From: a virus | Lineage: Duplodnaviria; Heunggongvirae; Uroviricota; Caudoviricetes | Virus record (IMG/VR): IMGVR_UViG_2740892488_000005 | Coordinates: 1-8,791 of that record | Reading direction: 5' to 3' (one strand) | Length of the DNA stretch: 8,791 nt | In this document: one piece after another, positions 1-8,791 of the stretch | Position numbering within the stretch: position 1 is the first letter of the stretch | Layout of the letters: every line of letters starts with the position of its first letter | Program-made: the position numbers and the translations under genes | Notes under the pieces: model-generated | The model's input: only the letters and a program-made list of their open reading frames with translations | Told to the model about the DNA's origin: nothing | Database searches by the model: none

Positions 1-46
1 ACTTGTGATAAATCCGAATGGTTTGGTCGCCGTTCGGGGTAACTGG

Positions 47-68
47 CCCGCCTTGTGCGGGTCTTTTT
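47..68 (+). terminator. Putative rho-independent terminator ending an upstream off-window transcript
   Basis: Hairpin CCCGC (47-51) / loop CTTGT / GCGGG (57-61) followed directly by TCTTTTT (62-68). A TAA at 40-42 could be the stop of a gene entering from the left. Confidence 0.45.
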
Positions 69-127
69 GCTATCTAAAGGGTGCCGGTTACGTTTCCGGC
101 GTCGTTATGTTTCCATTACGACCGTAC

Positions 128-200
128 AGGGCTGGTCAGGCCCGGGCTGGTCTTTCCTGTTTTGAGCTGGTCAGGCTCATGGTCAACGCTGGTCAGGCGT
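128..200 (-). repeat. Tandem array of three stem-loops with conserved 7-nt loop (TGGTCAG on plus, CUGACCA if transcribed leftward) and covarying 4-5 bp stems
   Basis: Loops at 133-139, 168-174 and 190-196. Stems GGGC/GCCC (129-132/140-143), TGAGC/GCTCA (163-167/175-179), ACGC/GCGT (186-189/197-200). Same element occurs inverted at 2191-2205 and 4615-4631. Confidence 0.6.
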
Positions 201-291
201 GGTACTTCCTCCGGTCTTTCCCTGGTGTCACGCTGCGGGTTTGGCCTCTCCTGTTGGGGACTCAGGCACAGCGATAAAACCTGGCTGTGTG

Positions 292-319
292 AAAAAATGG
301 CCCATCGTGCGGACTGGGC
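292..319 (-). terminator. Possible intrinsic terminator on the minus strand
   Basis: On the minus strand GCCCA / 10-nt loop / TGGGC (plus 300-304 pairs with 315-319), then C and a T6 run (plus A-run 292-297). Stem is short, so tentative. Confidence 0.3.
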
Positions 320-764
320 AAAGACTAAACACAGCAAATTGATGATGGGCGCCGGAATCGAACCGGGTAACGGGCAGGGAGTTCCCGTTAAACACCTGTT
401 CACCACAACCGGGAGCGCACTCCGCCATTTCAAAATTTAACGACAAAGCTCAAAGTTGAGTCGATGAAGTGCGCTCTCGTGTTGTAGCCAGGACTCTTCC
501 CTGGTGGTCACACCGTATCGCCTTGATGGTGAATCAATCGCTCATACCTGGCTGTGGCTTGCACATTCCGGCTACCTGCTATGGAGACAACGCGTTAAGG
601 CTCCGCTTCCATCCAGACCGCTTCGACACATGTGCCATATGCCGGTGAAGTCTTTCCCTCTGTCACCGTGTTGGCGCCGACGCGCAAAATTTGGTGCCGT
701 CTTTCCGGCTGTCAGAACGTGTTTCTGAACAACTGCCGCTGGGTAAGCGTTGTTGATGAAAGTG

Positions 765-820
765 ACTTTACAATTTGTATTTGTAATGGTCAATGTGTTT
801 TTAAAAAATAATTTGTAGTG
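765..820. promoter_or_regulatory. OL-like operator cluster downstream of the repressor gene
   Basis: AT-rich block with TTTGTA at 774-779, 780-785 and 812-817; palindrome TACAA-T-TTGTA at 769-779; 9-mer ATTTGTAAT (779-787) also present at 1372-1380 in the repressor/cro intergenic region. Confidence 0.4.
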
Positions 821-911
821 AGGGGCAAAAAAATATTCACTGTGTAAAGGTGTTTTTGTGTTAGGGGAAAGTTGCATGCCAGCAGCGGCTGGCCTGGAAA
901 TTTGAACTGAA

Positions 912-1304
912 CTATTTTGTCTGGTTTTTGGCTTCAAGTAGTTCTTTTAGCAGTAGATCGAAGTGCTCTCTTTTTTCTTTTAGCTCATTGATTAATTTAT
1001 TTTTTTCGCTCTCAGGCAGTCCTCTGAATAGTTGCAGTAGAGCCTGTTCTTGCGGGGTTAGTTCTTGATTGTAATTACCCGGGTGTAGTGTGGATTCATC
1101 CAAATATTCCCCTTCATTCATGAAGAAAAAATGAACAGGGTATCCGGTCACTTTTGCTAGCTTGTCTAATTTATCTTTTCTTGGAGTTACCCCATTACAC
1201 CATGCCTGAACTGATTGAGCCGTAACCCCAATATGGCGAGCTAACTCAGATTGAGACCAGCCTAAGTCTTTTAGAATCCGTTGTAGTCGGCTAGCAAAAG
1301 CCAT
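912..1304 (-). CDS. Prophage CI-like repressor, XRE-family HTH, 130 aa, with no LexA-like S24 peptidase domain
   Basis: ORF 912..1304 (-). N-terminal HTH signature (LGWSQSELARHIGVTAQSVQAW) and helical C-terminus; divergent from a cro-like gene across an operator-rich intergenic region. No Shine-Dalgarno within about 15 nt upstream of the ATG, so possibly a short-leader or leaderless mRNA. Confidence 0.8.
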   Translation of the reverse strand: MAFASRLQRILKDLGWSQSELARHIGVTAQSVQAWCNGVTPRKDKLDKLAKVTGYPVHFFFMNEGEYLDESTLHPGNYNQELTPQEQALLQLFRGLPESEKNKLINELKEKREHFDLLLKELLEAKNQTK

Positions 1305-1424
1305 GTTTTTCGTTTTTTGTGTTCATACCGTAAGGATACAAGGTTTAATTGTAGGGAGCATTGCAAATATAATTTGTAATTACAGTTATTGTTTGTAATG
1401 ATGACGCGGACACAAGGAGTCCAT
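1305..1424. promoter_or_regulatory. Divergent promoter/operator region between repressor and cro-like gene (OR-like)
   Basis: AT-rich 120 bp intergenic region with perfect 10-bp palindrome TGTAATTACA (1375-1384), further TTTGTA copies at 1373-1378 and 1392-1397, a TTGCAA -35-like hexamer at 1361-1366, and AAGGAG SD at 1414-1419. Confidence 0.55.
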
Positions 1425-1655
1425 ATGGATAAACAACTGCAAGACAAAATTCTTTCCGTAATGAGTCAATCCGAGTTAGGGCGGCGATTAGGGAAAAAAC
1501 CACAAACGGTAAGCCTCTGGTTCAAAGGACGGGTTCCCGGTGAAGAGGTTTTGCGCACATCTGAAGCTCTTGAATGGCGCGTGACCCCTCATGATCTTAG
1601 ACCGGATCTTTACCCAAACCCAGATGACAGCTTGCCTAAAACGGAAGCAGCTTAA
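1425..1655 (+). CDS. Cro/YdaS-like HTH regulator, 76 aa
   Basis: ATG at 1425 preceded by AAGGAG (1414-1419). The track ORF starts at 1389 but that ATG lies inside the operator repeats with no SD. HTH (SQSELGRRLGKKPQTVSLWF) and the C-terminal HDLRPDLY motif typical of Cro/YdaS-type prophage proteins. Confidence 0.75.
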   Translation: MDKQLQDKILSVMSQSELGRRLGKKPQTVSLWFKGRVPGEEVLRTSEALEWRVTPHDLRPDLYPNPDDSLPKTEAA

Positions 1656-1713
1656 CTGTTGGTGAGCCCCAAATCTGATTAAGCGTAATCAATTTTTAGC
1701 GACAGGAGACGCT

Positions 1714-2190
1714 ATGGAAAACCAAGAGGAATTACAAAAAGAGATTTTGACCTGGGCGGCAAGGGCAGGGCAGGAACTCGTCACGATTGAAATCTGCCGG
1801 GCCTGGTTCAGTCAGGGACGCAATGATGAGTTGAGACTACATGAATTTGAGGACGCGGACGGCAACGTGGACTGGAGAGCCATCAACAACAATCGGCAGA
1901 AAATCTTTCGCTGGTTACGTGGCGAGACAACGGCGGCGCGCCGAAAAACTCAGGTGCTGGCCAGTGTGATGAAAGCCGTGCTACCCGCAGAACGGCGGGC
2001 ACGTCTGGAGTCGCCGGGCGATCCCGTTTTGCTGGCAACGCTGGCGGCAAAAGAAGGGGTGGAAGCGATTAACGCTGTACATCTCCACTTCGCGCCAGAG
2101 TTAACTATTCAGGAAATTGACGAAGCAATAGCGGCGCTGGTAGCGACGCGAGGAGCAGTGATACGCACTGCGCAAGACCACCATGCATGA
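1714..2190 (+). CDS. YdaT-like (CII-analog) prophage regulator, 158 aa
   Basis: ORF 1714..2190 with AGGAG at 1703-1707. Contains the motif NNRQKIFRWLRGETTAARRK, which I recognise from Rac-prophage YdaT-family proteins; sits immediately after the Cro/YdaS-like gene as in Rac-type immunity regions. Confidence 0.65.
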   Translation: MENQEELQKEILTWAARAGQELVTIEICRAWFSQGRNDELRLHEFEDADGNVDWRAINNNRQKIFRWLRGETTAARRKTQVLASVMKAVLPAERRARLESPGDPVLLATLAAKEGVEAINAVHLHFAPELTIQEIDEAIAALVATRGAVIRTAQDHHA

Positions 2191-2229
2191 GCGCCTGACC
2201 AGCGTTTAACTTATACCGAGGAAAGACCG
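2190..2229 (+). promoter_or_regulatory. Stem-loop plus conserved SD leader cassette (copy A)
   Basis: Directly after the TGA at 2188-2190: stem GCGC/GCGT (2191-2194/2202-2205) with loop CTGACCA (2195-2201), 9-nt spacer, then ACCGAGGAAAGACC (2215-2228) and ATG at 2230. Same architecture at 4615-4651. Confidence 0.55.
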
Positions 2230-2388
2230 ATGTTAAGACATATTGACCGCATTACCTGGCGTAACGGCTGGCACCTGAATGGACGCCCGGCACATGTTGC
2301 AGAGATCCGCCCCATATTCGATGGCCGCGTCGCAGCTGCACGTTCTGTATGGGAAAAGTACGAAGAAGAAAAAAGCGAAACTGCGTGA
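2230..2388 (+). CDS. Hypothetical small protein, 52 aa (below the ORF-track size cutoff)
   Basis: ATG 2230 to TGA 2386-2388, translating MLRHIDRITWRNGWHLNGRPAHVAEIRPIFDGRVAARSVWEKYEEEKSETA. Supported by the strong SD (GAGGA) and by the identical 14-nt leader that precedes the 136-aa gene at 4652. Confidence 0.45.
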   Translation: MLRHIDRITWRNGWHLNGRPAHVAEIRPIFDGRVAAARSVWEKYEEEKSETA

Positions 2389-2451
2389 GCAAAATCTCTC
2401 TGGCGCTGCCTATGAGGCTGGCTGTCGCGTTCTCTCAGAGGCTTTGGGCAT

Positions 2452-3042
2452 ATGAACATCCTCCCGTTACTTGATAGACCCATAGCCTTCCAGAGAAGTT
2501 TTATCCGTCTTGAAATGGGCGTGACTGCCGCATTGTTTCTGTCGCAGTTGACGTACTGGACAAACAGAACAACTGACGACGGCTGGGTATATAAAACCCA
2601 GGATGAGTGGGAAGAGGAAACAGGGCTTTCACGATACGAGCAGGAGGGCGCGCGCAAAAAACTACGTGGTCTCGGCGTCTTGCTGGAACGTAAACAGGGC
2701 TTGCCTGCCAGGCTGTACTACAAAATCGATAATGATGTGTTGTGCCAGCTACTTACGTCCGCATACAAGGATGCGGAAAAACCACATACAGGTGAGGGGA
2801 AAACCACCAGGCCTGTACGTGGAAAACCAACAAACATTCTTACAGAGAATACTACAGAGATTATTACTGATGGTGAATCGGCTGACGCCGACACCCAACA
2901 ACCTGCCGACCAGAGAATAAATTATCAGGTGATACTCGATACCTATCACGAGATTTTGCCAGAGATGCCACCAGTGAAAATCCTCACTGACGGCAGAAAA
3001 AAAACACCTTCGCACTTTCTGGAAAAAATTCAATTTCAATGA
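2452..3042 (+). CDS. Phage replication initiation protein (replisome-organiser type, winged-helix N-terminal domain); reading frame probably disrupted near its 3' end
   Basis: ORF 2452..3042 (196 aa); N-terminal region resembles phage O-like/DnaD-like initiator winged-helix domains and lies directly upstream of a DnaB-family helicase. An adjacent frame stays open from 2978 to 3208 and ends overlapping the helicase start, suggesting a +1 frame change at A8 (2997-3004) or A6 (3023-3028). Confidence 0.6.
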   Translation: MNILPLLDRPIAFQRSFIRLEMGVTAALFLSQLTYWTNRTTDDGWVYKTQDEWEEETGLSRYEQEGARKKLRGLGVLLERKQGLPARLYYKIDNDVLCQLLTSAYKDAEKPHTGEGKTTRPVRGKPTNILTENTTEIITDGESADADTQQPADQRINYQVILDTYHEILPEMPPVKILTDGRKKTPSHFLEKIQFQ

Positions 3043-3197
3043 GTCCCGTTGGCGGGCCTATCTGGAATTTATCGGTGGCAATTGTCGCTGGATGCTGGAG
3101 GACAGGCCAAATGGCAGGGGAGGATTCTGGCGGCGTAAAAATCTTGATTATCTGATTACCGAACGCTGCTATGTTTCGGTCAAGGAAGAACGCGCAA

Positions 3198-4613
3198 ATG
3201 ATAAATAACGCGATTGCACTGTACAGCGTTGACGCAGAACAGGCTGTTCTGGGCTGTCTGATGCTGAATACCGACCACGACAGAACCAATGCGGTATTTG
3301 CGTTACTGAAACCGGAAACGTTTTATATCAATGCGCATCAGGTTATCTACCGGGAGATCAAAGGATTATTTCAAGCTGATAAACCAACTGACCTGATAAC
3401 ACTGACCGAACTGATGGAATCGAAGGGGCTGTATGAGCGCGTGGGGGGATTCGCATACCTGGCTGAAATGAGTAAGGCGGCGATTCCGGCCTCAATGGTC
3501 AACTACGCGAAAATTGTACGTGAAAAAGCCATTCTTCGTTATGCCGTGGAAAAGTTGAATTCTTGTCTGGAGATTATGATCCAGCCTGCAGATATGACTG
3601 CTACTGACAGGATCACCGCCGTTCAGCAAGTGATTGGGCAGGTGGCCGAACATTCCCGTACCGGGCATAAGGGCGGTTTGCGTCCGGCAAGTGAAGTCGT
3701 CGATGACTGGATAGATGACCTTGAGCGCCGTTTCAATGATCCAGCACATGCAGCCGGACTAACGCTCGGAATCGAAAGCCTTGATCGCTTAATGGCACCA
3801 AAGCAGGCGTTAAGAGGTTCATTGGTCGTTATTGGTGCCCGGCCAAAAATGGGCAAGACAGCCGCGTTTAATAAAATTGCGGTGCATTTTGCTCTGAATC
3901 ATCGTTTGCCGACGCTGGTATTTAGCCTGGAAATGACTGACAGAAGTCTCATTGAACGCATGGTTGCGCAGGAAGCAAAGGTCAATTCGGAGATTTTTTA
4001 TCTTGGCCCTAACGATGAATCTGAATTGAGTCTCGCAATAGCAAAGGCGGGGGAGATTGCCGAATCCAACATGATGATTGACAGCACGGCAGGTGTAACC
4101 CTTGCGCATATTGTCGCTGAATGTCGAAAAGTTAAACGGATGCGTGGCTCGGTTGGCCTGGTGGCAATTGACTATTTGACGCTGATGAAGACCGAATCGG
4201 CAGAGCGTAGGGATATTGCGTATGGCGATATCACAACCGGTTTGAAGAACCTGGCAAAAGAGCTGGATTGTGTTGTGGTCCTGCTGACGCAACTCAACCG
4301 AAAGCTTGAAGAACGTGCCGATAAGCGGCCTAACCCGAGCGACAGTAAAGATACCGGGCAGATCGAACAAGATTGCGATGTCTGGATTGGCCTCTATCGT
4401 GATGCTGTTTATAACGAAAATGCCGACCCAAATCTCATGGAAATGTTGCTACGTCTGAACCGCGAAGGACCATCGGGAACAGCCTATGCCCTGATGAAAA
4501 ATGGCTCAGTTATTGATATCAGCGATGAGGAGGTTTATCGCCTTACCAACGACCGCTCAGAAAAAAATAAACGTTATTCCCGTAGCGATAATTCTCGCAC
4601 AAATGAATTTTAA
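3198..4613 (+). CDS. DnaB-family replicative DNA helicase (phage-encoded, P22 gp12-like)
   Basis: Track ORF 3171..4613; preferred start is ATG 3198 with AAGGAAG SD at 3183-3189. DnaB N-terminal motif (SVDAEQAVLGCLML), Walker A (GARPKMGKTA), SLEM motif, and LTQLNRKLEERADKRPNPSDSKDTGQIEQDCDVWIGLYRD matching the DnaB H3/H4 region. Confidence 0.9.
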   Translation: MINNAIALYSVDAEQAVLGCLMLNTDHDRTNAVFALLKPETFYINAHQVIYREIKGLFQADKPTDLITLTELMESKGLYERVGGFAYLAEMSKAAIPASMVNYAKIVREKAILRYAVEKLNSCLEIMIQPADMTATDRITAVQQVIGQVAEHSRTGHKGGLRPASEVVDDWIDDLERRFNDPAHAAGLTLGIESLDRLMAPKQALRGSLVVIGARPKMGKTAAFNKIAVHFALNHRLPTLVFSLEMTDRSLIERMVAQEAKVNSEIFYLGPNDESELSLAIAKAGEIAESNMMIDSTAGVTLAHIVAECRKVKRMRGSVGLVAIDYLTLMKTESAERRDIAYGDITTGLKNLAKELDCVVVLLTQLNRKLEERADKRPNPSDSKDTGQIEQDCDVWIGLYRDAVYNENADPNLMEMLLRLNREGPSGTAYALMKNGSVIDISDEEVYRLTNDRSEKNKRYSRSDNSRTNEF

Positions 4614-4614
4614 C

Positions 4615-4651
4615 CACGCCTGACCAGCGTGAAATAACCGAGGAAAGACCA
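4615..4651 (+). promoter_or_regulatory. Stem-loop plus conserved SD leader cassette (copy B)
   Basis: Directly after the helicase TAA (4611-4613): stem CACGC/GCGTG (4615-4619/4627-4631) with loop CTGACCA (4620-4626), 5-nt spacer, then ACCGAGGAAAGACC (4637-4650) and ATG at 4652. Confidence 0.55.
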
Positions 4652-5062
4652 ATGACCACCACTCCAGGCAAATTAGAGTACCCGTCGGACAAAGGACACA
4701 TAGACGACGGTAAAAACTATCTCGACGTCATTTTGTGGAATATGAACGTCGGGCCACGTGCGCGCACTCGCGCGGTTTTTGTGCCAAGACCTAAAGCAGG
4801 CAATTTTTCAACCCCTGCTAAGCCTGCCCGTCAGGCATCCGTAGCCGCAGCGCCAGCAGTGAAACGTAAGGGCAAAACGCACACCGGGATCGCGATTCGC
4901 AGAAATGGTGAGCGGCAAGTGAAACTCCACGAAACAGCGACAACCTGGTGTGCCTCACCGCATGAAACTTACGACAAGATAACCGGGCAGCGCATTGGCG
5001 CGCCTGGTCGCTGCCGCCTGCTGCTGAGTTCCATCACTCCGATAGCAAAGAAAGGGGCGTGA
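4652..5062 (+). CDS. Hypothetical protein, 136 aa
   Basis: ORF 4652..5062 with the conserved SD leader; enterobacterial-style codon usage (CTG, GCG, CCG rich); no competing ORF on either strand. No family recognised. Confidence 0.6.
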   Translation: MTTTPGKLEYPSDKGHIDDGKNYLDVILWNMNVGPRARTRAVFVPRPKAGNFSTPAKPARQASVAAAPAVKRKGKTHTGIAIRRNGERQVKLHETATTWCASPHETYDKITGQRIGAPGRCRLLLSSITPIAKKGA

Positions 5063-5063
5063 T

Positions 5064-5300
5064 ATGGCCGGGCAATCAGATTACCTGCCGCCCGGCTTAC
5101 CACACAACCGCGCCAAATGGCCCCAGGAATACCAGCTTAAAGAGCACTACGACATGCGAGCGGCGGCGCTGATCCGCCAACTCTTTGAGAAACGTATTCC
5201 GAGGGGAAGCGTGATTGAGCAAATCGGAATGACGCCAGATACGTACCGGGAATTTTTCAGAGAGCGTCTGAACTACTGGAGAGGGGTGATGGAACAATGA
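5064..5300 (+). CDS. Hypothetical protein, 78 aa
   Basis: ORF 5064..5300, starting 1 nt after the previous stop; purine-rich AAAGGGG upstream. Its stop overlaps the next start in an ATGA arrangement. Confidence 0.55.
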   Translation: MAGQSDYLPPGLPHNRAKWPQEYQLKEHYDMRAAALIRQLFEKRIPRGSVIEQIGMTPDTYREFFRERLNYWRGVMEQ

Positions 5301-5608
5301 AATACAAACGGTGGGTGCGTGCGGAAGTCGTAATCATCAAACAATGTGCGGGCAGCATGACAGTTGAACGTATAGGGCAGCTTATTGGCAGAACCGGTGC
5401 AGCGGTACGCACAAAAGCGCGCGAGCTGAAAATCTGTATGTATCTGCGGGGTAATTATCACCAGTCAGTGAAATACCTCCAGGAAGATATCGAGCTGGCA
5501 AGGGAATTACATCAGTCGGGTATTAATCGCCAGGATATCGCAGAAAAACTCGAAATGCCGATCGGAGCGGTGAATCAGTTTGTTTATTTTGAGCGGAGAA
5601 TTTCATGA
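5297..5608 (+). CDS. Hypothetical DNA-binding protein with two HTH-like segments, 103 aa
   Basis: ORF 5297..5608; ATGA overlap with the upstream gene. Two helix-turn-helix-like stretches (MTVERIGQLIGRTGAAVRTKAREL and INRQDIAEKLEMPIGAVNQFV); the HTH assignment is inferred from sequence pattern only. Confidence 0.5.
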   Translation: MKYKRWVRAEVVIIKQCAGSMTVERIGQLIGRTGAAVRTKARELKICMYLRGNYHQSVKYLQEDIELARELHQSGINRQDIAEKLEMPIGAVNQFVYFERRIS

Positions 5609-5829
5609 AAGAACTTTTTCTTGCATTTGTGCCCCGGTTTATTAATGACCAGATCGCACTGACTGATAATGGTGAACAATATGAAATTGCCTGCAGCATG
5701 GTGGATGTGAATCCTGGCGAACGGTATGACGCGATGTGTGACCTGAAAATATTTACCTGGCTGGGTTGGGCTATTCCGTGTGGAGAACCAACCAATATTC
5801 GTCCGTTTGAGAGCAGGGAGGCTGTATGA
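5605..5829 (+). CDS. Hypothetical protein, 74 aa
   Basis: ORF 5605..5829; ATGA overlap with the upstream stop, part of the coupled small-gene chain. Confidence 0.5.
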   Translation: MKELFLAFVPRFINDQIALTDNGEQYEIACSMVDVNPGERYDAMCDLKIFTWLGWAIPCGEPTNIRPFESREAV

Positions 5830-5942
5830 GTGAATTGAAAATACGTCGCAAGGCAATAGCACGCGTTAAAAATCTATTACCAGTGCCTGTCAAATATCGT
5901 TTTTGTGGTGGGAATGTACGGATTGGTACGGATGTATGGTGA
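5826..5942 (+). CDS. Possible small ORF, 38 aa
   Basis: ATG 5826 overlapping the upstream stop (ATGA), stop TGA at 5940-5942, translating MSELKIRRKAIARVKNLLPVPVKYRFCGGNVRIGTDVW. Only positional evidence. Confidence 0.3.
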   Translation: MSELKIRRKAIARVKNLLPVPVKYRFCGGNVRIGTDVW

Positions 5943-6016
5943 TTGCGGAGTGACGTAAAACGAATCGTTGTGGGTGTAATATCGTCAATATCATTGGTTT
6001 CCCGGAGGGAAAGGAC

Positions 6017-6238
6017 ATGTTTGGCGATAAACTGGAGTTACCACGGAACGGGCGGATAGTGCTCTATATTTCAGATTACAAAGTAACCCGGGCTGAGGTG
6101 TTGGAACCGGAAAAACATCTGGTCACGTTACCGGACATTATTGAGTTGTATAAGCGGGTCGGATATGTGGACTTGCATCGCGATGATGTTCCCGTTGAGT
6201 GTATGGAATGTGAACACCGGAGGTTTGAAGTTGATTGA
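6017..6238 (+). CDS. Hypothetical protein, 73 aa
   Basis: ORF 6017..6238 preceded by GGAGGGAAAGG; followed about 90 nt downstream by a terminator-like hairpin plus T7. Confidence 0.5.
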   Translation: MFGDKLELPRNGRIVLYISDYKVTRAEVLEPEKHLVTLPDIIELYKRVGYVDLHRDDVPVECMECEHRRFEVD

Positions 6239-6329
6239 ATTGACTTAGAAAAAGTCCGGGGCTATAGTTTCCGCGCAGCCGCAAAATCGGTTGCCGGGAT
6301 TGGCGTCCCGGATATCTAAGTGACGCATA

Positions 6330-6349
6330 GCCGCGTTAGCGGTTTTTTT
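6330..6349 (+). terminator. Putative intrinsic terminator closing the small-gene operon
   Basis: GCCGC (6330-6334) / loop GTTA / GCGG (6339-6342) followed by T7 (6343-6349). Short stem, moderate confidence. Confidence 0.45.
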
Positions 6350-6448
6350 ATGTGTTAGGCACGGCCACATTCGCATTATGGTGGGCTGTGTGGGGGCTTC
6401 TGTGGAAGCGCCGGGTTCACTTAGCCGGTTACGCCAACCCTGCACAGC

Positions 6449-6481
6449 TCACCACCAGATGATTGGCGTCGCTGGTGGTGA
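6449..6481. promoter_or_regulatory. Perfect 10-bp inverted repeat immediately upstream of the antirepressor start
   Basis: TCACCACCAG (6449-6458), 13-nt spacer ATGATTGGCGTCG, CTGGTGGTGA (6472-6481); right arm contains the Chi octamer GCTGGTGG (6471-6478). Antirepressor SD AAGTGAGG at 6495-6502 and ATG at 6511. Confidence 0.4.
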
Positions 6482-6510
6482 TGAAAAAAACACTAAGTGA
6501 GGCCACTGCG

Positions 6511-7300
6511 ATGACAGTCCAAATATCTGCGGAATCCCTTTCTCCGCTACATCATAACCAACTTCCCGTCATCACTACTGAATTGCTTGCCAGTTTGTAT
6601 GGCACGGAAGTAAATGGTATCCAGCAAAACTTCAAGCGCAACATCGCCAGATTTGTCGTAGGAAAGCATTTTTTTTAAGCTGGAAGGTAATGAATTACGC
6701 GACTTCAAAAACAGACTGACAGATAGTCAGTCAGTTGCTAAACATACCCGATCCCTCATTCTCTGGACAGAACGCGGCGCAGCTCGCCATGCCAAAATGC
6801 TGGAAACAGAACAGGCCTGGGAAGTTTTCGAAAAGCTGGAAGATTGTTATTTTAGCCAGCGTCCAGAGAGGCGGAGTACAACTACCGATGACCGTACTCC
6901 CTTGCGTGATGCCGTTAATATACTGGTCGGCAAGAAAGGCATGATGTATCCCGATGCCTACACCATGATTCATCAACGCTTCGCCGTCTCTCACATAGAA
7001 CAACTGTCACAGACGCAAATGTTAGAGGCGATTGAATACATCCACTGCCTGCTACTCGATGAAAATCACCCAACCATTCCAGATTTTTCTTTTATCACCA
7101 CTATCAAAAATGGAAAAGTGACCGGGATGCGCCATGTTGCCAAAGGCGAACATCTGATGACCTTTGACGCTTTCAAAGAGATCGCTGAGCGGGCAGGGTA
7201 TCTGGTGATCCACAGCGACAATCTGCGAAGTATGACACTGGATAAATTGATGGTAATGGGGAAAAAGTCGGCTATATCCGTTGCTAATTCAGCATTTTGA
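6511..7300 (+). pseudogene. Phage antirepressor-type regulatory protein, interrupted by a frameshift in a T8 run
   Basis: N-terminal part in frame 1 (6511-6678, ends GKHFF-stop) and C-terminal part in frame 2 (track ORF 6797..7300, open from 6677). Removing one T from T8 (6669-6676) gives a continuous ~262-aa protein with the conserved stretch GKHFFKLEGNELRDFKN...SLILWTERGAARHAKMLETEQAWEVFEKLEDCYF, which I recognise as antirepressor-like. Confidence 0.65.
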
Positions 7301-7427
7301 CAGGTTGTTTGGGGCGGAAATACTCTATTTGCGCTTAAAAAGGTATTTGACCACGACCAGCACGAGACCGAATACCTCTGTCAAAGTACCGCCCATATAA
7401 AACAGTTACATATGCACTTGATGACTA

Positions 7428-7459
7428 AGCTGGCACCAGGTTAACACCTGGCGCCAGCT
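7428..7459. other. Strong near-perfect hairpin between convergent genes (14-bp stem, one mismatch, 4-nt loop)
   Basis: AGCTGGCACCAGGT (7428-7441) / TAAC / ACCTGGCGCCAGCT (7446-7459). No U-tract on either strand, so not a canonical intrinsic terminator. Confidence 0.4.
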
Positions 7460-7589
7460 TGAAGGAGACTTCAGTTATTGGTTTCTGAGGAAAGCGATTC
7501 TTGAAAGGGTCATTTGCGTCTGGCAGTCGACCATTTTCTTGACTTCAGCATCTGTTCCCTGCATTGAAACTTTACCGCACATAGCATCC

Positions 7590-8294
7590 TTAGTTTTGAT
7601 CCACTGACGCTGAGAAGGCAGCAAATCTTTTTTTCTTCGCCGGGGTTAACTTGCTCCAGACGGTACTCAAATCAGAGTCGGCATTCGCAAATGCCATTCG
7701 GGACTGATCAAGGTTGTCAGCTTTTTGCGGCTGAAGTTGTGCCTGTCTCTCTATTTGCTTCTCCGCCTCATACTTAGCCTGTTCTTGCGCCCTGAGTTGC
7801 ACCTGTTGTTCCGCTTCAATTTGACTCTGTTGGGCATCCTTAGCCTGCTGGATTTTCTGCTGCTCAACGATCGGGGTGATAATGGAAAGCGATGTCAGTA
7901 AAGCGGCGCCCACTGATATCGGATTATCAGTAGAGGTTTTTACAAAAACGTTTTTCTGATCGTCGGTCGCCTGCACGGTGTAGGTGATACGTTTTGAAAA
8001 GGCGTTTGCGTTGTTCTCCAAAAACAGGCTTTCCATTTGCTTATCGAGATTACGATTAAAATTCTTTCTGTAAGCATCTGAAAGCTGGACGTACTCGTTC
8101 GCAGATAGAGTCATCGTCACGGTCCCTTCACAAGTTTTCATTGTGCTGCCCGTGTCACTTGATGTTGTGGAGATCTCAGAGATGGCTAGTTTGATCTTGT
8201 CCAGTGTGCTTCGTTTGGTCTGATTAGTGACATCAGGGTATTTATCGACCTGTTCAGAGAGTCCTTCATAAGCAGATTTTTTTAATAAATCCAT
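7590..8294 (-). CDS. Hypothetical protein, 234 aa: N-terminal domain, central hydrophobic helix, Gln/Glu-rich coiled-coil C-terminal region
   Basis: ORF 7590..8294 (-). Hydrophobic stretch ISVGAALLTSLSIITPIV followed by a heptad-like Q/E/A-rich segment. Frame stays open upstream of the ATG until a stop at plus 8358-8360, inside the IS end, so the native 5' end or promoter may have been displaced by the IS insertion. Confidence 0.55.
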   Translation of the reverse strand: MDLLKKSAYEGLSEQVDKYPDVTNQTKRSTLDKIKLAISEISTTSSDTGSTMKTCEGTVTMTLSANEYVQLSDAYRKNFNRNLDKQMESLFLENNANAFSKRITYTVQATDDQKNVFVKTSTDNPISVGAALLTSLSIITPIVEQQKIQQAKDAQQSQIEAEQQVQLRAQEQAKYEAEKQIERQAQLQPQKADNLDQSRMAFANADSDLSTVWSKLTPAKKKRFAAFSASVDQN

Positions 8295-8420
8295 GAGAGC
8301 TGACTGGGTTATTTCCGAAGAACAACCGATCTCATCTTTTTTGTTATCTGAAGTGGTTTACTGAATTTGGCCACCTGAACAGAGGTGATATGCTCACCTC
8401 AGAACAACACAGGTGCCATA

Positions 8421-8721
8421 ATGAAAAAAAGAAATTTCAGCGCAGAGTTTAAACGCGAATCCGCTCAACTGGTCGTTGACCAGAATTACACCGTGGCAGA
8501 TGCAGCCAGCGCTATGGATGTCGGCCTTTCCACAATGACGCGATGGGTGAAACAATTACGTGATGAGCGGCAGGGAAAACACCAAAAGCCTCCCCTATTA
8601 CCCCGGAACAAATTGAAATCCGTGAGCTCAGGAAAAAGCTACAACGTATTGAAATGGAAAATGAAATATTAAAAAGGCTACCGCGCTCTTGATGTCAGAC
8701 TCCCTGAACAGTTCTCGATAA
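8421..8721 (+). pseudogene. IS3-family transposase OrfA (HTH plus leucine-zipper regulator), apparently frameshifted twice
   Basis: [53 protein letters not shown] in frame 3 (from 8421); expected continuation [27 protein letters not shown] in frame 2 from 8597; expected C-terminus [14 protein letters not shown] in frame 1 ending at TAA 8719-8721. Frame changes coincide with an A4 run (8576-8579) and the A5G slippery-site region (8671-8676). Confidence 0.65.
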
Positions 8722-8791
8722 TCGGGAAACTCAGGGCGCGTTATCCTGTGGCCACTCTCTGCCATGTGTTCGGGGTCCATCGCAGCAGCTA
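8676..8791 (+). CDS. IS3-family transposase OrfB, N-terminal part (3' end beyond the window)
   Basis: Frame 3 open from 8676 to the window end with a typical OrfB N-terminus ([16 protein letters not shown]). Confidence 0.6.

Follow-up and report, generated by a model that had tools for sequence, protein, structure and literature searches.

One-base homopolymer differences in an Escherichia coli ST131 prophage and an adjoining ISEc52 copy, probably of technical origin

The DNA analysed here (the window, 8,791 nt in full length) contains a replication initiator gene, an antirepressor gene and an IS orfA that all appear out of frame at short homopolymer runs, which raises the question whether these genes have decayed or were merely miscounted during sequencing or assembly. 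At face value the window describes a replication-dead and antirepressor-dead prophage with a dead IS copy. The differences from intact copies are exclusively homopolymeric, the variants are absent from other complete genomes, and the reading frames are restored on correction; the genes under the apparent frameshifts are most likely intact, with the exception of an LprI-family gene that is interrupted by the IS insertion.

Genes and run-length sites of the window

Judged from sequence comparison, the window is best explained as the early region of a prophage that is common in E. coli ST131, followed by the left end of an ISEc52 element. The genes concerned and the IS part are as follows.

2452..3207, + strand: replication-initiation O-like gene, intact length 251 aa, interrupted at an A8 run
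6511..7300, + strand: ORF6N antirepressor gene, intact length 262 aa, interrupted at a T8 run
7471..8348, - strand: LprI-family gene, intact length 307 aa, out of frame at a T7 run and cut by ISEc52 after codon 17
8349..8791, + strand: ISEc52 (IS3 family, IS911-like), leftmost 443 nt, opening with the inverted repeat TGAAGTGG; start of orfA at 8421

The labels of replication initiator, antirepressor and IS orfA, first given without database searches, are upheld by matches to the PHROG families 'replication initiation O-like' (2.4e-58) and 'anti-repressor' (2.7e-163) and to Pfam HTH_Tnp_1, respectively. Comparison with intact copies revealed nine run-length sites.

64..68, no strand assigned: T5 (reference T4), +1, non-coding
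352..353, no strand assigned: C2 (reference C3), -1, non-coding
1313..1318, no strand assigned: T6 (reference T5), +1, intergenic, between cI-like and cro/YdaS-like genes
2369..2374, + strand: A6 (reference A5), +1, 74-aa ORF (PHROG 2465) shortened to 52 aa
2997..3004, + strand: A8 (reference A7), +1, frameshift in the replication initiator
6669..6676, + strand: T8 (reference T7), +1, frameshift in the ORF6N antirepressor
7628..7634, - strand: T7 (reference T6), +1, LprI-family gene frameshifted close to its 3' end
8576..8579, + strand: A4 (reference A5), -1, within ISEc52 orfA
8671..8676, + strand: A5G (slippery heptamer A6G in ISEc52 copies), -1, ISEc52 orfA

Four of these disruptions had been reported by the sequence-only reading, and their positions, run lengths and shift directions agree with the intact copies. 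That list was incomplete, as five further one-base run differences are present in the window and two further broken genes (the 74-aa ORF and the LprI-family gene) had been missed. Regarding the replication initiator, for which the break had been placed at either an A8 or an A6 run, the A8 run is the altered one, whereas the A6 run (3023-3028) has the same length as in intact copies.

Six of the nine runs are one base longer and three one base shorter than in the reference, and 3/9 sites are non-coding. The indel density in the window is approximately 1 per kb, non-coding DNA included. When A/T runs are grouped by their true length, the altered fraction climbs from 1.5% at length 4 (1/66) through 3/36 at length 5 and 2/11 at length 6 to 22% at length 7 (2/9). 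Since sites also occur in non-coding DNA, the underlying process tracks run length and not gene content.

Comparison with other copies of the prophage

Positions 1-8348 of the window aligned to strain SK1144 with no mismatches and seven one-base gaps, all in homopolymers, and the ISEc52 part (443 nt) aligned to three ISEc52 copies with no mismatches and two one-base gaps; nine one-base differences confined to homopolymers are far beyond chance. More than 400 complete E. coli genomes with the prophage likewise gave zero substitutions and seven one-base run differences for 1-8348. The 15 best single-piece matches to the window had an identical alignment score, as would be expected if all had these seven gaps, and two complete genomes with the prophage (L001 and L002), compared base by base, showed no substitutions and no differences inside the span of the window. 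Correction of the run lengths at the nine sites makes positions 1-8348 identical to SK1144. The 74-aa ORF and the RepO-like (251 aa), ORF6N (262 aa) and OrfA (100 aa) proteins are then complete again, the A6G heptamer returns, and the LprI-family gene is in frame as far as the IS cut.

None of the seven prophage alleles of the window was found among 5,426 complete RefSeq genomes, whereas the reference alleles are present in 449-477 of them, with A7 and T7 as the only states at the A8 and T8 sites of the carrying genomes. The allele-specific megablast (19-nt flanks) was informative for runs of up to 6 only; the low-complexity filter of BLAST appears to mask runs of 7 or more, since the control with reference alleles yielded a per-genome median of 4 places where 5 were expected. 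With N-spaced 68-mers, the best matches were 67/68 at all three sites (2997, 6669 and 7628). This search also placed 33 records in its band of at least 99%; these are probably shorter partial matches, because the ranking is the product of coverage and identity and no 68/68 match stood on top.

At the protein level, each truncated product was found in 2-19 contigs, whereas every intact protein occurs in 1000 or more: the 196-aa replication product in 9-11 contigs, the 55-aa antirepressor product in 19 (several of them noisy), the 52-aa product of the 74-aa ORF in only 2 other contigs, and the 83-aa product of the A4 state of orfA in 2 other contigs, each of at least several hundred kb and one of them with many split neighbours. 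The 234-aa LprI fragment of the window had no recorded match. A 49-aa LprI tail ORF was considered as a marker for the T7 allele and dropped, as frameshifts of both directions give rise to it; T5 instead of T7 was read in six of its seven carriers, the alignment of the remaining one (L035, 649 nt) being too poor to score.

Single window alleles thus recur only sporadically elsewhere, often in noisy assemblies of the prophage in which almost all differences are one-base homopolymer changes. Insertions but no substitutions were seen in L006 (11 in 14.3 kb) and L021 (19 in 11.8 kb). In a set of six assemblies, each a single contig of 5.2 Mb and all with adjacent accession numbers, 13.9 kb of sequence shows 55-62 one-base differences per assembly, nearly all of them homopolymer deletions, and 0-2 substitutions; pairs among them have 38-47 sites in common and 7-18 per genome that differ, so that most sites are recurrent and a minority is assembly-specific. 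The window, with approximately 1 difference per kb, lies below the worst public assemblies of the prophage (approximately 4 per kb). The mixture of insertions and deletions had been taken to favour real mutations slightly; this argument does not hold, as evidently noisy assemblies of the prophage mix directions as well (3 insertions and 2 deletions in L009, 2 and 1 in L024).

The ISEc52 insertion

The junction between the IS and the LprI-family gene was absent from complete E. coli genomes, GTDB representative genomes and JGI metagenome contigs; being private to the window, it suggests that the insertion is recent. A recent insertion that nevertheless carries two inactivating changes within 100 nt argues for an artefact. 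Elements of the IS3 family (IS911-type) undergo a programmed -1 frameshift at A AAA AAG (A6G). Intact ISEc52 copies show this arrangement: their OrfA measures 100 aa, orfA is open up to the A6G heptamer at the orfA/orfB overlap, and the OrfB frame (-1) is open after A6G. When the window copy was examined as such a frameshifting element, both the A AAA AAG motif and an open orfA were missing; it differs from the family in having A5G and an additional upstream -1 change in orfA, so that, as written, neither OrfA nor OrfAB could be made.

An IS911-like relic adjacent to the fec genes of E. coli (annotated 'IS3 family transposase, frameshifted; internal stop') shares A5G with the window, although it differs from the window IS by approximately ten substitutions over 443 nt and has A5 rather than A4 at the first site. 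A5G is a natural allele in this old, diverged relic. Contamination of the IS consensus by reads from the relic was rejected as a source of A5G, as all of its approximately ten substitutions are absent from the window.

Artefact, decay and other explanations

The nine differences are very probably a homopolymer artefact of sequencing or assembly, a technical cause to which the sequence comparisons point. Nine runs (true lengths C3 and A/T 4 to 7) would have been miscounted by one base each, owing to a chemistry or a consensus step that is poor at run length, e.g. flow-based short reads or long reads left unpolished. The five apparent frameshifts (74-aa ORF, replication initiator, antirepressor, LprI-family gene and IS orfA) and the missing A6G would then be by-products. 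The differences concern run length only, the alleles are not shared with independent high-quality assemblies of the lineage, and they spread over coding and non-coding DNA according to run length. Homopolymer indels are the dominant residual error in long-read assemblies, in which they fragment genes (PMC12007338), and the errors of long-read and flow-based (454, Ion Torrent) platforms likewise consist of one-base run changes only, in both directions, rise with run length in coding and non-coding DNA alike, and leave frames that close references restore (PMC12007338, PMC8442456). Of the two readings originally offered, artefact or decay, the former is thus borne out by nine run changes without a single substitution and by the restored frames, whereas a defective prophage and a decayed IS are not.

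The main value of the observation is that of a quality flag on the source assembly, over the remainder of which approximately 1 error per kb is to be expected. As the genes are most likely intact, it is unsafe to call a 'defective prophage' or a 'pseudogene' on the basis of this assembly. The broken genes themselves are an ordinary finding in a well-known prophage of E. coli ST131, and the case illustrates that many near-identical genomes can settle the choice between error and decay without reads.

A mixture, in which most sites are errors and one or two are genuine (most plausibly A8 at 2997, T8 at 6669 or A5G), is rather unlikely. Some alleles do occur in assemblies that are otherwise clean over 6-14 kb, namely A8 (L007, L008), T8 (L020, L026) and A6 at 2369 (L015), A8 or T8 being the sole indel relative to SK1144 in the first four; the A8 and T8 runs are also the longest A/T runs in coding sequence. 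Slippage at such tracts may therefore be a real event in nature. The longest runs are, however, also those most often miscalled, several other carriers belong to accession series with visibly noisy assemblies (ERR13868xxx, ERR13669xxx), and the rarity of the truncated products relative to the intact proteins speaks against genuine alleles.

Real slipped-strand mutation, i.e. genuine pseudogenisation of a decaying prophage and IS in a strain that might be a mismatch-repair-deficient mutator, is very improbable. One-base run indels that rise with run length are likewise seen in mismatch-repair-deficient E. coli (PMC8510543), individual alleles recur elsewhere, some of them in otherwise clean assemblies, and A5G is found in a naturally decayed IS relic. 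Yet even without mismatch repair, the biological state with the strongest measured tendency to slippage, the spectrum consists mostly of substitutions (30,061 against 5,324 indels in mutation accumulation, approximately 5.6 per indel; PMC8510543), and at this spectrum the probability of nine indels in nine events is 0.15^9, approximately 4e-8. Substitutions of the kind that accompany pseudogenisation were not found in the window (0 in 8348 nt of prophage, 0 in 443 nt of IS), in contrast to the truly decayed fec-adjacent relic. The ST131 clone is so young that zero substitutions would be expected anyway, and it is therefore the surplus of indels, not just the missing substitutions, that carries the argument. 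A genome-wide density of 1 indel per kb would, moreover, break most genes, and the prophage alleles occur in 0/5,426 complete genomes.

It is also highly doubtful that A7 in the replication initiator and T7 in the antirepressor are genuine slippage hot spots that are recurrently switched off in natural isolates, the window representing such a state with assembly noise added; if this were so, replication and induction of the prophage would be silenced recurrently. Functional recoding or phase variation, in which the runs would serve as programmed slippage sites, ribosomal or transcriptional, or would turn prophage replication and the antirepressor on and off, is extremely unlikely. The A8 and T8 tracts do vary recurrently between assemblies, with several carriers in partly noisy accession series, and the IS3 family does use A6G for -1 frameshifting, with an open OrfB frame in intact ISEc52. 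Such a device is unneeded, however, where A7 and T7, the states of over 400 complete genomes, are in frame; the IS copy of the window has lost its A6G heptamer and gained no signal, and non-coding runs are equally altered.

Prophage identity and gene order

In a set of 5,426 complete E. coli genomes searched by megablast with the full-length window, 415 matched 80% or more of its length with 99.8-99.9% identity. O25b:H4/ST131-type strains were frequent among the hosts listed. When aligned to SK1144, an E. coli strain with the same prophage, most of the compared genomes showed no substitutions, and the prophage is otherwise invariant among them. The gene order is based on the SK1144 annotation and on Pfam and PHROG scans.

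Gene order of the prophage
cI-like HTH repressor, minus strand
YdaS/cro-like regulator, then YdaT-family protein
74-aa ORF
'replication initiation O-like' protein, 251 aa
DnaB-type helicase, then several small ORFs
ORF6N antirepressor, 262 aa
LprI-family protein, 307 aa, minus strand

Run-length differences in the window

Run lengths were compared with SK1144 for the prophage part and with three copies of ISEc52 for the IS part. At nine homopolymers the window differed by one base (six +1, three -1), and it had no substitution in 8,791 nt.

Run-length differences (window versus reference)
64, T5 versus T4, +1, non-coding
352-353, C2 versus C3, -1, non-coding
1313, T6 versus T5, +1, non-coding
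2369, A6 versus A5, +1, 74-aa ORF shortened to 52 aa
2997, A8 versus A7, +1, replication initiator
6669, T8 versus T7, +1, antirepressor
7628, T7 versus T6, +1, LprI-family gene frameshifted
8576, A4 versus A5, -1, IS orfA
8671, A5G versus A6G, -1, ISEc52 slippery site

The sequence-only reading had placed four frame disruptions exactly at 2997, 6669, 8576 and 8671, and the alignments agree with its +1 at T8 and -1 at both A4 and A5G. Its choice of A8 or A6 in the initiator is settled for A8, the A6 at 3023 having the same length in SK1144. All four are present but make up under half of the pattern, the five further differences having been missed. The altered fraction of A/T runs of true length 4, 5, 6 and 7 was 1/66, 3/36, 2/11 and 2/9, rising with length. 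With the nine changes undone, window 1-8348 is base-for-base identical to SK1144, the 74-aa ORF, 251-aa initiator and 262-aa antirepressor are intact again, the LprI frame is open as far as the IS cut, IS OrfA has 100 aa and the A AAA AAG heptamer is back.

An allele-only query, with flanks too short to seed without a run-length match, gave no match to the window alleles in the 5,426 genomes, whereas reference alleles in the same design (control) matched 449. Runs of at least 7 were apparently masked by the BLAST low-complexity filter, since the median number of places per genome in the control was 4 and not the expected 5. For this reason the three long runs were searched again as 68-mers with N spacers, and the best-ranked matches were 67/68 (one gap) at every site in 477 genomes. 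Truncated products were counted in a far larger set, which comprises draft assemblies and assemblies derived from reads. They were rare (196-aa initiator fragment, 9-11 contigs; 52-aa fragment of the 74-aa ORF, 2; 55-aa antirepressor fragment, 19; 83-aa OrfA variant, 2), whereas each intact protein occurred in at least 1000 contigs.

Probable miscalling and possible real slippage

Judged from these comparisons, the nine differences very probably represent systematic homopolymer miscalling, a known class of artefact (PMC12007338), and not a biological feature. Many carriers of truncated products, aligned to SK1144, resemble the window in kind.

Carrier loci
L006 (GCA_024546765.1), 5.1-Mb contig, 11 insertions and 0 substitutions in 14.3 kb
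L021, 19 insertions and 0 substitutions in 11.8 kb
L022, 7 insertions and 1 substitution in 9.4 kb
L009, 3 insertions, 2 deletions and 0 substitutions
L029-L034 (GCA_053291525.1 and five neighbouring accessions), six single-contig 5.2-Mb assemblies, 55-62 one-base differences and 0-2 substitutions in 13.9 kb

Nearly all differences in L029-L034 are deletions in homopolymer runs; the majority of sites recur across the six and a minority vary (38-47 common to each pair, 7-18 per genome not). A8 at 2997 is found with or without T8 at 6669, and vice versa, in no consistent pattern and, because the combinations across carriers are not nested, recurrent miscalls at the longest runs explain them better than inheritance. 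Indels are all +1 in some data sets, all -1 in others and mixed in yet others; mixed direction is therefore no evidence for real mutation, which it had been taken to favour slightly. Between the homopolymer errors and the slipped-strand decay proposed from the sequence alone, the comparisons favour the former; the slight lean towards real mutations is not supported. DnaB is in two pieces in L006 and in three in L029-L034, all public single-contig ST131 assemblies, and the numbers of pseudogenes in these records cannot be relied on.

Since A8, T8 or A6 at 2369 is the sole indel versus SK1144 in a few assemblies that look clean elsewhere (L007, L008, L020, L026, L015), low-frequency real slippage may exist at these tracts, and any single window site might be genuine. 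Slippage as the source of all nine indels, gained by one lineage in an otherwise invariant prophage, is not supported, as it would require indel-only, locus-wide hypermutation, for which we know of no mechanism; three of the nine are non-coding. Run-length dependence is predicted by both slippage and sequencing error; the mutation spectrum tells them apart. In mismatch-repair-deficient E. coli, slippage is left uncorrected. Even so, mutation-accumulation lines of this kind yielded 30,061 substitutions versus 5,324 indels (PMC8510543), a spectrum under which nine indels in nine events have P ~ 4e-8. The fec-adjacent IS911-like relic, the one truly decayed relative available, has the A5G state of the window IS in >1000 genomes but differs by about ten substitutions across those 443 nt, whereas the window IS has none.

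The most length-variable tract at the prophage locus is a G9 run downstream of the window, near 12011 of the complete genome L001. Several assemblies have one G more, one fewer or as many as four fewer, among them the RefSeq complete genome S14 (L002) with G8; the tract may truly be hypervariable, or it may be where errors are worst.

ISEc52, RNAs and repeats

From 8349 the window consists of the left 443 nt of ISEc52 (IS911-like, IS3 family), which interrupts the LprI-family gene at 8348|8349, after codon 17 and directly past the cysteine of an N-terminal ...LTGC motif. No sequence matching the IS/LprI junction was found in complete E. coli genomes (5,426), in GTDB representatives or in JGI metagenome contigs; the insertion, whose right end, where a target duplication would show, is outside the window, may be private and perhaps real, or an assembly join. 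ISEc52 transposase genes in RefSeq genomes (L003 1684-2853, L004, L002) are labelled 'frameshifted' pseudogenes though intact. The -1 OrfB frame of intact ISEc52 is fully open past the A6G heptamer; the label therefore seems to stem from nothing but the canonical A6G -1 programmed frameshift, apparently the sole frame change in those copies.

Immediately upstream of the antirepressor gene, three RNA matches from Rfam exceed the gathering score.

RNA matches
6262-6314, c4 a1/b1 target
6275-6349, isrK Hfq-binding sRNA, 80 bits
6374-6459, C4 antisense RNA, 75 bits

None of the nine miscalled runs is inside these RNAs. Together with the antirepressor they presumably resemble the module in phage P1 (immI) and Salmonella Gifsy-type prophages in which antisense RNA controls an antirepressor.

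The 11-mer GCTGGTCAGGC has five exact copies in the window versus 0.12 expected (at least five in 0/200 shuffles).

Copies of GCTGGTCAGGC
131-198, three copies, direct, within the ~900-nt non-coding left region
2193-2203, inverted, directly past the stop codon of the ydaT-like gene
4618-4628, inverted, directly past the stop codon of dnaB

Each inverted copy is followed by a common ACCGAGGAAAGACCRATG start region of the next ORF, and GCTGGTCAGGC may be a candidate operator or RNA-level signal.
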